Below, in pieces: positions 34,995-39,569 of a stretch of DNA of 64,000 nucleotides; position 1 is the stretch's first letter; every line of letters starts with the position of its first letter. The DNA comes from Escherichia coli (GTDB taxonomy: Bacteria > Pseudomonadota > Gammaproteobacteria > Enterobacterales > Enterobacteriaceae). Both the position numbers and the translations under genes were made by a program. The stretch is from the NCBI RefSeq assembly GCF_044324875.1, contig NZ_CP172185.1, one strand, 5' to 3'. The notes under the pieces were generated by a model. It had not been told where the DNA came from. It saw only the letters and a list, made by a program, of their open reading frames with translations, and did not search any database.

Positions 34995-37900
34995 ATGAAC
35001 AGGACCAGTCCCTATTATTTTCGCCGCTCAGTACTTTCCTTATTGATATCTGCCTTAATATATGCCCAGCCCGGGATGGCGGCCTTCACTACTAATGTTA
35101 TTGGTGTGGTAAACGATGAGACTGTAGATGGCAACCAACGAGTAGATGAACGAGGTACAACAAATAACACACATATTATCAACCATGGCCGGCAGGAGGT
35201 CTATGGTGGGATATCTAATAGTAGTATTATTGAAACTGGTGGCGAGCAACTAGTATCAATCCATGCCGATATTAACGGGCAAGCTAATAATACAACCATT
35301 AATGGAGGCAGACAGTCAATTGAGTACGGAGGAATTTCTACTGGCACGATAATCGAAAGTGGCAATCAATATGTTTATAAAGGTGGTACCAGCAATGACA
35401 CGACAATTAAGGGCGGTACTTCACGCATAGAGGGGGGGACTGCAAATGGAACAATCATTGATGGTGGAGGCCAGTCAGTATCAACTCAGGGGCATGTTGA
35501 CGGTACGACGATAAATAAGTCTGGTTATCAGGACATCACGCAAGGAAGTCTGGCGACGAACACAACCATAAATGGTGGGCGACAGTATGTTGAACAGAGC
35601 ACAGTAGAAACAACCGCCATTAAAAATGGCGGTGAGCAAAGAGTATATGAGAGCCGTGCGCTGGACACGACGATTGAAGGCGGAACTCAGTCTCTGAATA
35701 GTAAGTCAACGGCAAAAAATACGCAGATCTATTCTGGTGGTACGCAAATTGTTGATAACACGAGCTCCTCGGATGTTATTGAAGTTTATTCCGGCGGCGT
35801 GCTTGATGTTAGAGGTGGTACGGCAACTAATATTACTCAGCACGATGGAGCCGCTTTAAAAGTAACGACTTACGATTTGACGGTGAGCGGTACGAATAGT
35901 GAAGGGGCATTCTCCATCCACAATAACGTGGCAGAGAATGTGTTGCTGGAAAACGGTGGTCATTTAGACATAAACGCATATGGTTCGGCAAATAAGACGA
36001 TTATTAAAGATAAAGGAACAATGTCAGTTTTAACGAATGCTAAAGCTGATGCGACCCGAATAGATAATGGCGGCGTTATGGATGTTGCCGGAAACGCGAC
36101 AAATACCATAATTAATGGTGGCACACAGAATATTAATAATCATGGTATTGCCACGGGCACCAATATCAACAGTGGAACGCAAAATATCAAGAGCGGCGGG
36201 AAAGCTGACACGACAAATATATCCTCTGGGAGCCGGCAGGTTGTTGAGAAAGATGGTACGGCAACTGGCAGCAATATTAGCGCCGGAGGCTCGCTGATTG
36301 TCTATACCGGCGGTATTGCACATGGGGTTAACCAGGAGACGGGCAGTGCTTTAGTTGCCAACACGGGCGCAGGGACTGATATCGAAGGATACAACAAGCT
36401 CTCTCACTTCACTATTACCGGAGGAGAGGCTAATTATGTTGTGCTGGAAAATACCGGCGAACTGACGGTAATGGCTAAAACCTCGGCGAAAAATACTACC
36501 ATTGATGCTGGCGGTAAGCTGATTGTCCAGAAGGAGGCTAAAACAGATAGCACCAGACTTAATAATGGTGGCGTTCTGGAGGTTCAGGACGGTGGTGAGG
36601 CTAAGCATGTTGAGCAACAATCCGGCGGCGCATTAATTGCTTCCACGACCTCCGGAACACTTATCGAAGGAACCAACAGTTATGGTGATGCTTTCTACAT
36701 CAGGAATTCAGAAGCTAAAAATGTAGTGCTGGAAAACGCTGGCTCATTAACAGTCGTCACTGGTTCCCGGGCAGTTGACACGATTATTAATGCCAACGGC
36801 AAAATGGATGTTTATGGAAAAGATGTTGGTACTGTACTTAATAGTGCTGGTACCCAAACAATATATGCCAGTGCCACTTCTGAAAAAGCAAATATCAAAG
36901 GTGGCAAGCAAACGGTATATGGTTTAGCCACTGAGGCAAATATCGAAAGTGGTGAACAAATTGTTGATGGTGGGTCAACAGACAAAACGCACATCAATGG
37001 CGGTACGCAAACCGTTCAGAATTATGGTAAGGCGATCAATACCGATATCGTCTCTGGCCTACAACAAATTATGGTAAACGGGACAGCGGAAGGTTCCATT
37101 ATTAATGGCGGTTCACAGGTAGTTAATGAGGGCGGTCTGGCTGAAAACTCGGTGCTTAATGAAGGCGGCACTCTCGATGTGCGGGAGAAAGGCAGCGCAA
37201 CGGGGATACAGCAAAGTAGCCAGGGCGCGTTGGTTGCAACCACCAGAGCGACGCGGGTCACAGGGACACGCGCTGATGGCGTCGCGTTCAGCATTGAGCA
37301 GGATGCGGCGAACAATATCCTGCTGGCAAATGGCGGCGTGTTAACCGTGGAGTCAGACACCACTTCCGCCAAAACACAGGTCAATGCGGGCGGGCGGGAG
37401 ATCGTCAAAACAAAAGCCACTGCGACAGGCACGACGCTCACCGGCGGCGAACAAATCGTCGAGGGGGTGGCGAATGAGACAACGATTAACGACGGCGGAA
37501 TACAAACAGTTTCGGCTAACGGTGAGGCAGTAAAAACAACGATTAATGAAGGCGGTACGCTGACAGTCAACGATAATGGCAAAGCGACAGATATCATCCA
37601 GAACAGCGGTGCCGCTCTCCAGACGAGCACGGCTAACGGTATTGAAATCAGCGGTACTCACCAGTACGGCACCTTTTCCATTGCCGGAAATTTAGCGACC
37701 AATGTGCTGCTGGAAAATGGCGGTAATTTATTGGTATTAGCAGGTACCGAAGCTCGCGATTCCACGGTTGGCAACGGTGGGGCAATGCAAAACCTGGGTC
37801 AGGACTTCGCCACAAAGGTTAATTCCGGTGGGCAATATACCCTCGGTCGGTCAAAAGATGAGTTTCAGGCTCTGGCCCGGGCAGAAGATCTACTGATCGC

Positions 37901-39569
37901 TGGCGGGACGGCAATCGTCTACGCAGGTACGCTGGCGGATGCATCGGTCAGTGGCGCGACAGGAAGCCTGTCGTTAATGACGCCACGGGATAATGTTACG
38001 CCAGTTAAACTTGAAGGGGTGGTCCGGATTACCGATAGCGCGACATTAACTATCGGAAATGGCGTCGATACGACGCTTGCCGACCTGACGGCTGCCAGTC
38101 GGGGCAGTGTCTGGCTTAACAGCAATAATTCCTGTGCAGGCACCAGCAACTGCGAATATAGAGTAAACAGTTTACTCCTCAACGACGGTGATGTTTATTT
38201 ATCAGCACAAACAGCAGCGCCTGCCACAACTAACGGTATCTACAATACGCTGACCACCAGTGAACTTTCCGGCAGCGGTAATTTCTACCTGCATACCAAC
38301 GTTGCAGGCTCCCGGGGCGATCAACTGGTCGTCAACAACAACGCCACTGGCAATTTTAAAATCTTTGTTCAGGATACCGGCGTCAGCCCTCAGTCTGACG
38401 ACGCGATGACGCTGGTGAAAACAGGGGGAGGGGATGCTTCGTTTACGCTGGGTAATACCGGCGGTTTCGTTGATCTTGGGACCTATGAGTATGTCCTGAA
38501 AAGCGACGGCAACAGCAACTGGAACCTGACCAATGATGTCAAACCCAACCCGGACCCCAACCCAAATCCGAAACCGGATCCAAAACCAGACCCAAAACCG
38601 GATCCGAAACCAGACCCGACTCCCGCTCCAACGCCGACACCCGTCCCGGAGAATCGCATCACGCCTTCTACAGCAGCCGTACTCAATATGGCAGCAACAT
38701 TACCGTTGGTCTTTGATGCTGAGCTAAACAGTATTCGCGAGCGGTTGAACATAATGAAAGCGAGTCCACACAACAATAATGTCTGGGGGACGACGTATAA
38801 CACCCGTAATAATGTCACCACCGATGCGGGTGCCGGGTTTGAGCAGACGCTGACCGGAATGACGGTGGGGATCGATAGCCGTAATGATATTCCTGAGGGG
38901 ATTGCGACGCTGGGCGCTTTTATGGGTTATTCCCATTCACATATTGGTTTTGATCGTGGAGGACATGGCAGTGTGGGCAGTTATTCTCTGGGGGGCTATG
39001 CCAGCTGGGAACATGAAAGTGGTTTCTATCTGGACGGTATCGTGAAGCTGAACCGCTTTGAAAGTAACGTAGCCGGTAAAATGAGCAGCGGTGGAGCCGC
39101 CAACGGCAGTTATCGCAGCAACGGGCTGGGCGGTCACATTGAAACCGGGATGCGATTTACGGATGGTAACTGGAACCTGACGCCGTATGCATCGTTAACG
39201 GGGTTCACCGCTGATAACCCCGAATATCATTTATCCAATGGCATGGAATCGAAATCAGTCGATACCCGCAGTATATATCGTGAACTGGGCGCAACGCTGA
39301 GTTACAACATGCGTCTGGGGAACGGTATGGAAATTGAGCCGTGGCTGAAGGCGGCTGTGCGCAAAGAATTTGTCGATGATAACCGGGTGAAGGTGAATAA
39401 TGACGGTAATTTCGTCAATGATTTGTCGGGCAGACGTGGAATATACCAGGCAGGTATTAAAGCCTCATTCAGCAGTACGTTAAGCGGACATCTCGGGGTG
39501 GGGTATAGCCATGGTGCCGGTGTGGAATCCCCGTGGAACGCGGTGGCTGGTGTGAACTGGTCGTTCTGA
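34995..39569 (+). CDS. ypjA: AIDA-I-type (type Va) autotransporter adhesin, YpjA-like, 1524 aa
   Basis: ORF 34866..39569; start set at the second ATG (34995), 9 nt after AGAGG, giving the extended autotransporter signal peptide MNRTSPYYFRRSVLSLLISALIYAQPGMA. Passenger built of degenerate ~19-residue beta-helix repeats (NGG.Q.V..G.A..T.I); Pro-rich linker PNPDPNPNPKPDPKPDPKPDPKPDPTPAPTPTPVP; C-terminal beta-barrel ending ...AVAGVNWSF. Confidence 0.85.
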   Translation: MNRTSPYYFRRSVLSLLISALIYAQPGMAAFTTNVIGVVNDETVDGNQRVDERGTTNNTHIINHGRQEVYGGISNSSIIETGGEQLVSIHADINGQANNTTINGGRQSIEYGGISTGTIIESGNQYVYKGGTSNDTTIKGGTSRIEGGTANGTIIDGGGQSVSTQGHVDGTTINKSGYQDITQGSLATNTTINGGRQYVEQSTVETTAIKNGGEQRVYESRALDTTIEGGTQSLNSKSTAKNTQIYSGGTQIVDNTSSSDVIEVYSGGVLDVRGGTATNITQHDGAALKVTTYDLTVSGTNSEGAFSIHNNVAENVLLENGGHLDINAYGSANKTIIKDKGTMSVLTNAKADATRIDNGGVMDVAGNATNTIINGGTQNINNHGIATGTNINSGTQNIKSGGKADTTNISSGSRQVVEKDGTATGSNISAGGSLIVYTGGIAHGVNQETGSALVANTGAGTDIEGYNKLSHFTITGGEANYVVLENTGELTVMAKTSAKNTTIDAGGKLIVQKEAKTDSTRLNNGGVLEVQDGGEAKHVEQQSGGALIASTTSGTLIEGTNSYGDAFYIRNSEAKNVVLENAGSLTVVTGSRAVDTIINANGKMDVYGKDVGTVLNSAGTQTIYASATSEKANIKGGKQTVYGLATEANIESGEQIVDGGSTDKTHINGGTQTVQNYGKAINTDIVSGLQQIMVNGTAEGSIINGGSQVVNEGGLAENSVLNEGGTLDVREKGSATGIQQSSQGALVATTRATRVTGTRADGVAFSIEQDAANNILLANGGVLTVESDTTSAKTQVNAGGREIVKTKATATGTTLTGGEQIVEGVANETTINDGGIQTVSANGEAVKTTINEGGTLTVNDNGKATDIIQNSGAALQTSTANGIEISGTHQYGTFSIAGNLATNVLLENGGNLLVLAGTEARDSTVGNGGAMQNLGQDFATKVNSGGQYTLGRSKDEFQALARAEDLLIAGGTAIVYAGTLADASVSGATGSLSLMTPRDNVTPVKLEGVVRITDSATLTIGNGVDTTLADLTAASRGSVWLNSNNSCAGTSNCEYRVNSLLLNDGDVYLSAQTAAPATTNGIYNTLTTSELSGSGNFYLHTNVAGSRGDQLVVNNNATGNFKIFVQDTGVSPQSDDAMTLVKTGGGDASFTLGNTGGFVDLGTYEYVLKSDGNSNWNLTNDVKPNPDPNPNPKPDPKPDPKPDPKPDPTPAPTPTPVPENRITPSTAAVLNMAATLPLVFDAELNSIRERLNIMKASPHNNNVWGTTYNTRNNVTTDAGAGFEQTLTGMTVGIDSRNDIPEGIATLGAFMGYSHSHIGFDRGGHGSVGSYSLGGYASWEHESGFYLDGIVKLNRFESNVAGKMSSGGAANGSYRSNGLGGHIETGMRFTDGNWNLTPYASLTGFTADNPEYHLSNGMESKSVDTRSIYRELGATLSYNMRLGNGMEIEPWLKAAVRKEFVDDNRVKVNNDGNFVNDLSGRRGIYQAGIKASFSSTLSGHLGVGYSHGAGVESPWNAVAGVNWSF

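Follow-up and report, generated by a model that had tools for sequence, protein, structure and literature searches.

The 64,000-nucleotide (nt) stretch of Escherichia coli DNA analysed here (contig NZ_CP172185.1 of assembly GCF_044324875.1; hereafter the window) carries an intact reading frame of 1524 amino acids (aa) whose stop codon lies 160 nt from the 3′ end of ssrA, the transfer-messenger RNA (tmRNA) gene. This frame is ypjA, called ehaD in enterohemorrhagic E. coli (EHEC): a named, annotated, experimentally studied and already known gene (Table 1). The favored explanation of the locus as a whole, to which we give a probability of about 0.93, is that it encodes a classical type Va autotransporter adhesin of the AIDA-I/Ag43/TibA-like group. 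An initial annotation, made without database searches, had correctly placed an intact open reading frame (ORF) of this length and position directly beside ssrA; its type Va, AIDA/Ag43-like architecture also stands, now with domain models, homologues of solved structure and two AlphaFold models behind it, but it missed the identity of the gene as ypjA/ehaD.

Table 1. Features of the ypjA locus in window coordinates (a dot marks a feature given without strand)
Feature	Coordinates	Strand	Basis
ypjA/ehaD coding sequence, intact, 1524 aa	34995..39569	+	ORF; same coding sequence in the annotation of the Prokaryotic Genome Annotation Pipeline (PGAP)
Ordinary Sec signal peptide, ~30 residues (1-30), MNRTSPYYFRRSVLSLLISALIYAQPGMAA	34995..35084	+	sequence reading; cleavage site inferred
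Beta-helix passenger, residues 31-1056, degenerate 18-19-residue repeats, five strong AIDA (PF16168) modules	35085..38162	+	
Pertactin-like junction/autochaperone, residues 1057-1179	38163..38531	+	Pfam PF03212, E 1.5e-45
Pro-rich spacer KPNPDPNPNPKPDPKPDPKPDPKPDPTPAPTPTPVPE, residues 1183-1219, imperfect 12/24-nt tandem repeat	38541..38651	+	sequence
Predicted alpha-helix plugging the barrel pore, residues 1224-1256	38664..38762	+	AlphaFold2 (AF2)
12-strand outer-membrane beta-barrel, residues 1261-1524, end ...VAGVNWSF	38775..39566	+	PF03797, TIGR01414, AF2
Conserved ypjA 5′ leader with annotated 39-codon ORF (34811..34930)	34811..34994	+	allele comparison; PGAP WP_001120794.1, hypothetical protein
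Pin-type serine recombinase internal fragment (pinH remnant), non-functional	34421..34579	+	Pfam Resolvase positions 48-100 of 145, E 3e-8
G+C-rich hairpin between ypjA and ssrA, outside the island, 12 nt past the ypjA stop	39581..39602	.	folding
ssrA (tmRNA), 3′ end without integrated element	39730..40092	-	ARAGORN; Rfam RF00023, 292.8 bits
10.7-kb accessory island (amylase-like gene, tRNA-Ile ileY, ypjCB, pin and IS3 fragments, ypjA)	28839..39578	.	alignment to ypjA-less E. coli

This analysis itself established the identity of the gene, its domains and predicted folds, its synteny and the polymorphism of its linker. By direct reading of the sequence, translation starts at an ATG (34995) with an AGAGGA Shine-Dalgarno motif 8 nt before it and stops at 39567-39569. 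A longer mechanical ORF opens at a GTG (34866); PGAP picks the 34995 start in the bovine strain CE0007a, whose genome is 99.9% identical over 34200..40100 and whose ypjA differs at 2 nt and 1 aa (G1105D). The RefSeq product name is "adhesin-like autotransporter YpjA/EhaD", and full-length aa identity is 94.1% to YpjA of K-12 (1526 aa) and 94.2% to the O157:H7 copy (1528 aa), with which the window shares locus, neighbors, domain order and product name. The surrounding order of tRNA-Ile (ileY), ypjCB, a recombinase fragment, a small hypothetical ORF and ypjA is also that of K-12, and high full-length identity together with this conserved setting near ssrA identifies the gene as an orthologue of YpjA/EhaD. 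One patch of the N-terminal passenger, 35245..35544, sets the window allele apart from those of K-12 and O157: nt identity to them drops to 77-82%, while flanking blocks are 88-97% and most of the gene 93-100% identical, which suggests a mosaic, recombinant allele.

The C-terminal region has the domains of the type Va family. The Autotransporter model PF03797 spans residues 1263-1502 (E 1.2e-46), and TIGR01414 scores 331 bits (E 9e-99) against a cut-off of 16. In an AF2 model of residues 1056-1524 (mean predicted local distance difference test, pLDDT, 84.4), 12 long strands form a barrel that matches the BrkA beta-domain (3qq2) in Foldseek with a target-normalised template modelling score (TM-score) of 0.90; EspP, Hbp, the AIDA-I transport unit (4mee) and NalP are matched as well, and the model superposes on pre-cleavage EspP and on the BrkA beta-domain. 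A helix predicted with pLDDT ~80-90 (residues 169-201 of the model) fills the pore, and the last residue of the protein is F, the C-terminal aromatic residue of a beta-signal. Immediately before the spacer, residues 1057-1180 have sequence matches in the PDB to pertactin (1dab and 2iou); PDB sequence matches also include the BrkA barrel. The autochaperone and barrel ending in F that had been proposed from the letters alone are thus confirmed by PF03212, PF03797, TIGR01414 and the 12 modeled strands, and the absence of a predicted barrel, named in advance as grounds for giving up the idea, is not what we find.

The passenger has the repeat structure expected of a beta-helix. BLOSUM autocorrelation peaks at lags of 18 and 19 residues and again at 36, 37 and 54; TIGR04415, a model of 19-residue heptosylation-target-type repeats, reaches 235.6 bits over 11 stretches, and residues 1-1100 hold eight Pfam AIDA (PF16168) matches at E<=0.001 plus seven weaker ones. 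In PDB sequence comparisons, the passenger matches Ag43 (4kh3, 7koh, 7kob), an AidA-I family adhesin (7ko9) and TibA (4q1q) with E of 1e-25 to 1e-32. An AF2 model of residues 31-1180 is all-beta (mean pLDDT 80.3), with Ag43, TibA and pertactin as the best Foldseek matches (E 1e-8 to 1e-20). The degenerate ~19-residue repeats described initially are therefore real, and a beta-helical passenger followed by a junction/autochaperone domain joins the barrel as a hallmark of type Va secretion. The only two cysteines of YpjA, residues 1047 and 1053 (38133-38153, NSCAGTSNCEY), stand just ahead of the junction domain and could form a small disulphide loop.

One detail of the original observation is wrong: the signal peptide is not extended. 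The N-terminus MNRTSPYYFRRSVLSLLISALIYAQPGMAA reads as an ordinary Sec signal peptide of ~30 residues, with RR in its basic n-region, then a hydrophobic core and the c-region AQPGMAA, far from the 50 or more residues of an extended one. No extended-signal-peptide domain was found in a Pfam scan of residues 1-1100, which returned no match of any kind before residue 68, and a published parts list gives signal peptides of 29 aa for K-12 YpjA and 52 aa for Ag43 (PMC13101318).

Judged on its sequence, YpjA is a relative of AIDA-I and Ag43 and a member of neither. With both it shares repeat type, beta-helix passenger, junction domain and 12-strand barrel; from Ag43 it differs in its shorter signal peptide and in having no cluster of GATC sites in 34680..34995 by direct reading, which makes an Ag43-style Dam/OxyR switch unlikely. 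TibA of enterotoxigenic E. coli (ETEC) offers a parallel in layout: it too has a beta-helix of 19-residue repeats, and a Pro-rich domain lies between its junction region and its membrane domain (PMC3835316), the same order as in YpjA. The signal sequence of TibA, however, is 54 residues long and its partner is the heptosyltransferase TibC, whereas YpjA has a ~30-residue signal peptide, no glycosyltransferase gene nearby and a passenger about three times as long. Pertactin shares a homologous junction domain (PF03212 and PDB sequence matches). In Bordetella pertussis pertactin, region 2 (PQP repeats) is likewise Pro-rich, lies near the C-terminal end of the passenger and varies between strains in repeat number, in frame. 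Repeat sequence and organism differ from those of the YpjA spacer, and immune selection has been documented for the former protein, though not for YpjA. One review assigns YpjA, along with YcgV, to a group of biofilm-forming autotransporter adhesins (group 4; PMC9289746), PMC12547504 treats YpjA as the EhaD homologue, and a passage of PMC3796261 that cites Roux 2005 links both YpjA and YcgV to adhesion and biofilm formation in over-expression work.

Several points weigh against a functional adhesin of the AIDA-I/Ag43 type. The AIDA-I and Ag43 equivalog models return 274 bits (NF033176) and 355 bits (NF033177), well below their curated cut-off of 1200. A heptosyltransferase gene of the Aah/TibC type is not among the annotated genes of the island around ypjA, which comprise an amylase-like gene, tRNA-Ile, ypjCB, the recombinase fragment, small ORFs and ypjA, with no glycosyltransferase. 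The passenger model has global TM-scores to solved helices of only 0.1-0.3 and a predicted TM-score (pTM) of 0.43; since these values are low, it supports the local fold only. Some strains carry a ypjA that is frameshifted or disrupted by an insertion sequence (IS), and a promoter/terminator scan found no strong sigma-70-like plus-strand promoter upstream of the gene. Expression in this strain is putative, and the K-12 gene is reported by Roux and colleagues to be cryptic under laboratory conditions. Finally, the mechanism of YpjA is unknown and its structure unpublished according to PMC9289746, and cell-cell self-association of YpjA is putative.

The alternative that survives best builds on some of these points: ypjA could be decaying and in effect silent, left over from an old genomic island and with no current function in this strain despite its intact frame. 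The island is AT-rich and littered with fragments of mobile elements, it is missing altogether from some E. coli, and a 510-nt probe centred on the linker and reaching into the barrel matches only 2,524 of 5,426 complete E. coli genomes; frameshifted and IS1-interrupted copies and the lack of a consensus promoter upstream fit the same picture. Yet the 4.6-kb frame is intact here and in many lineages, the proteins of different alleles share 94% identity and differ little in barrel and junction, and published over-expression produced adhesion and biofilm phenotypes. A genomic SELEX (systematic evolution of ligands by exponential enrichment) study also reports a binding peak of the RpoS holoenzyme between ypjA and ileY (PMC5493296). 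We consider a silent relic unlikely and prefer a conserved autotransporter adhesin.

The Pro-rich linker had been placed within 1 nt of the boundaries that we find, and the initial annotation further suggested that the short tandem DNA repeat encoding it is a site of slipped-strand length variation. AF2 assigns pLDDT <50 to residues 1187-1217, so the spacer is predicted to be disordered. Tandem Repeats Finder reports an imperfect array at 38543..38619 with a period of 12 (74% matches) or 24. The longest perfect tandem tracts in the window allele measure 10 nt (period 6), 20 nt (period 12) and 35 nt (period 24), and synonymous differences interrupt the repeat.

Linker length was compared in two independent samples of matching genomes: an even sample of 60 rows with the 510-nt probe from the window allele as query, and a second sample of 60 genomes with the K-12 allele as query. 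The locus was confirmed for a few rows, and length classes were compared by allele similarity rather than on a phylogeny. In the first sample, 20 rows had a span of 510 nt, 27 of 516 nt and 10 of 522 nt, with three outliers; the second gave 19, 29 and 9, respectively, plus one span of 515 nt and two outliers. These three spans correspond to linkers of 43, 45 and 47 aa: the window allele has four KPDP units after NPNP, K-12 has an additional NP, and O157 an additional NPNP, leaving the window linker two residues shorter than that of K-12 and four shorter than that of O157. The length of the linker is therefore not invariant across strains; it falls into three in-frame classes, and all changes are multiples of 6 nt. 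The 515-nt match was considered as a further linker variant and rejected, the missing nucleotide having been lost from a G5 run that lies outside the linker.

Length follows allele class closely. In the first sample, all 19 rows with at least 96.9% identity have the 510-nt span, all 10 O157-like rows the 522-nt span and 27 of 28 K-12-like rows the 516-nt span; in the second, 29 of 31 K-12-like rows have 516 nt. About one K-12-like genome in 30 thus deviates in linker length, and strains 027_SK3 and KFu015 carry a 6-nt loss inside a K-12-type allele. No other 150-nt block of the gene varies as much between K-12 and O157 as the linker block (86% identity, where other blocks are typically 97-100% and at lowest 95.3% identical). 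Farther afield, a search with the C-terminal 469 aa found, among the matches listed (which included no full-length YpjA representative), linkers of 26, 38 and 40 aa in database representatives including E. albertii proteins.

Such variation could be taken as the mark of a hypermutable slipped-strand contingency site, one that changes length rapidly or switches the gene on and off within populations. In favor of this are the three linker lengths among ypjA alleles, the 6-nt loss within the K-12-like lineage, the divergence of the linker block between K-12 and O157, the further lengths in database representatives including E. albertii proteins, and a ycgV-locus paralogue in which perfect 12-nt tracts reach 74 and 110 nt and two porcine ETEC strains differ by 48 nt in length. 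Contingency loci, however, are recognised by a long perfect tract, by a unit that is not a multiple of 3 nt or a position in a promoter, and by frequent change in repeat number among close isolates. The units here are 6, 12 and 24 nt, the perfect tracts are short and broken by synonymous differences, and within an allele class length hardly varies in either 60-genome sample; the lone 515-nt case lies outside the linker. Because slippage by a 6- or 12-nt unit leaves the reading frame unshifted, on/off switching is impossible, and because the DNA repeat is short and imperfect it points to slow insertion/deletion polymorphism rather than to a contingency locus. We regard a contingency site as improbable. 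The spacer is a slow in-frame allelic length polymorphism, arising by slippage or recombination and mostly following allele lineage, and not a case of phase variation. Of the proposed slipped-strand variation, the length polymorphism between strains stands; a fast or on-off site, given 6-nt multiples, lineage-bound lengths and a 20-nt perfect tract, finds little support.

Probe matches of 462, 598 and 646 nt initially looked like extreme ypjA linker alleles and were rejected as such: they lie next to minE and ymgD and belong to the ycgV-locus paralogue, some copies of which PGAP names ypjA-like. This paralogue is 93-96% identical to ypjA over nt 2161-4585 (window 37155..39579, the 3′ half of the gene), including the junction, the position of the linker and the barrel, and its 300-nt leader is ~96% identical to that of ypjA; its reported role in adhesion and biofilm is also the same (PMC3796261). 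It differs in being only 1092-1150 aa long, with two blocks of the ypjA passenger absent, and in its linker, which ranges from 27 aa (NPNPNPKPDP...) to ~36 NP units encoded by long perfect repeats. Spacers in porcine ETEC6333 and ETEC1748 are (NP)n with perfect AACCCAAATCCG tracts of 110 and 74 nt, respectively, and differ in length by 48 nt, while that of O55:H7 strain DEC5D has 27 aa only. The expanded ycgV-locus spacer shows what a slippage-prone form of the same spacer looks like.

The least credible alternative is that the Pin fragment, which precedes ypjA by 415 nt on the same strand, is the trace of a former invertase-controlled switch of the gene: only Resolvase positions 48-100 of 145 survive, truncated alike in K-12, O157 and other lineages, a weak IS3-transposase-like fragment adjoins it, and Pin/Gin/Cin invertases are normally part of phage tail-fibre switches. 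Having neither the catalytic N-terminus nor anything past Resolvase position 100, the fragment is no intact recombinase, and PGAP annotates it as "incomplete; missing N-terminus and C-terminus". No gix/hix-like crossover site was found at two mismatches in the 64-kb window, a null result of little weight as shuffled sequences are expected to yield 0.38 matches, and the only inverted repeats nearby are weak, AT-rich and unconvincing. The IS3-family transposase-like peptide (34340-34440, plus strand, in the frame of 34102, which is not that of the Pin fragment) lies directly beside it; NCBIfam gives E of ~0.1 only for both short fragments (0.1 for the IS3-like peptide), and Pin was assigned by Pfam. 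The Pin remnant reported initially is thus present, but the former association of ypjA with a site-specific recombination system is not borne out by a truncated fragment that is decayed across lineages: it looks like mobile-element debris in an old island and not like a former regulator of ypjA.

If YpjA works as other autotransporters of this kind do, a Sec signal peptide of ~30 residues would direct it to the periplasm, where the C-terminal 264 residues would insert into the outer membrane as a 12-strand barrel with the helix of residues 1224-1256 running through its pore. The passenger would then be threaded outward and would fold, starting at the pertactin-like junction, into a long beta-helix whose rungs have 18-19 residues, with ~1,025 residues upstream of the junction. 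The disordered Pro-rich spacer of ~37 residues may hold this helix off the barrel, as in TibA. Once expressed, YpjA would promote surface adhesion and biofilm formation, as published over-expression work indicates. The repeat DNA of the spacer occasionally gains or loses 6-nt units, always in frame, giving slow allelic length polymorphism. The steps of secretion, surface display and adhesive function are proposed here from the family and the literature.

Three ypjA alleles with coding sequences ~5.5% apart have the very same ~190-nt leader; between ypjA and ycgV the leaders are ~96% identical and the first 360 nt of the coding sequences 83%. For the annotated 39-codon ORF within it, comparison of ypjA with ycgV gave no coding evidence: five of five substitutions are nonsynonymous, and the ATG is changed to GTG. 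An Rfam search of 34000..40200 at a permissive threshold found the tmRNA only and nothing in the leader, whose folding is no better than that of shuffled sequences (z = 0.31); we do not claim it as an RNA element. The hairpin at the other end of the gene was passed over by the promoter/terminator scan, whose T-tail rule it does not satisfy, and was assessed by folding instead: fold energies are -14.3 kcal/mol on the plus strand and -17.3 kcal/mol on the minus strand (z ~ -3). It is kept beside ssrA in ypjA-less E. coli, with a compensatory change in the stem (GCCCAC/GTGGGC to GCCCGC/GCGGGC), and is probably the ssrA terminator read by ypjA from the opposite side, possibly acting in both directions.

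That ypjA lies so close to ssrA reflects a well-known integration hotspot in its prophage-free state. In K-12, intA and the ~22-kb CP4-57 prophage come between ssrA and ypjA, and in O157 a different integrase-bearing element lies downstream of ypjA; the window has no element there, and ypjA adjoins ssrA in this strain because the ssrA integration site is empty of CP4-57. With a probe for the ypjA-ssrA junction, the K-12 match ends at window position 39752, 23 nt into the ssrA 3′ end, and we read these 23 nt as a probable attachment-site duplication from CP4-57. The direct junction seen in the window occurs in ~10 of 40 evenly sampled genomes. A count of 2,421 genomes at >=80% query coverage was discarded as a measure of adjacency: 91% of that query consists of ypjA plus its upstream flank, for which reason the junction-specific probe was used instead.

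Aligned with ypjA-less E. coli (e.g. WP4-S17-ESBL-03), homology stops at window position 28838 and restarts at 39579, which makes ypjA the last gene of a 10.7-kb island; island-less genomes have ~320 nt of unrelated sequence instead, with glaH adjoining ssrA. Upstream of ypjA the G+C content of the island is 29-41%. Two of its genes are intact here and internal-stop pseudogenes in K-12 annotation: the amylase-like gene (28963-31215, minus strand; a 750-aa alpha amylase C-terminal domain protein) and ypjCB (32607-34061, plus strand; 484 aa; NCBIfam NF050179, 932 bits), the latter being a pseudogene in several other strains as well. A PADLOC search with YpjCB returned no match. The tRNA gene at 31775-31850 is called tRNA-Met (CAT) by ARAGORN and tRNA-Ile by RefSeq; it is ileY, whose CAT anticodon is modified to read the Ile codon AUA. 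Over 13.9 kb, the window and CE0007a differ at 45 positions, and 32 of the first 40 listed cluster in recN (42241-43216), a pattern that looks like a recombination patch.

As a known gene in an ordinary genomic state, ypjA in this strain has little discovery value, and the outcome is largely corrective: its signal peptide is an ordinary one, the Pin fragment amounts to debris, and the polymorphism of its linker is modest, in frame and lineage-bound. A more tentative idea, which we raise as a possibility on the doubtful side, is that the spacer of YpjA and YcgV acts as an evolvable "stalk-length" module, in which gaining or losing units of 6 or 12 nt in frame would set how far the beta-helix reaches past lipopolysaccharide (LPS) or capsule, with selection, and not neutral slippage, keeping the lengths typical of each lineage. 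If so, the expansions to ~36 NP units in the ycgV-locus copies of porcine ETEC would be its extreme case, and the strain-variable NP repeats of this paralogue could be used to test how spacer length relates to adhesin function.

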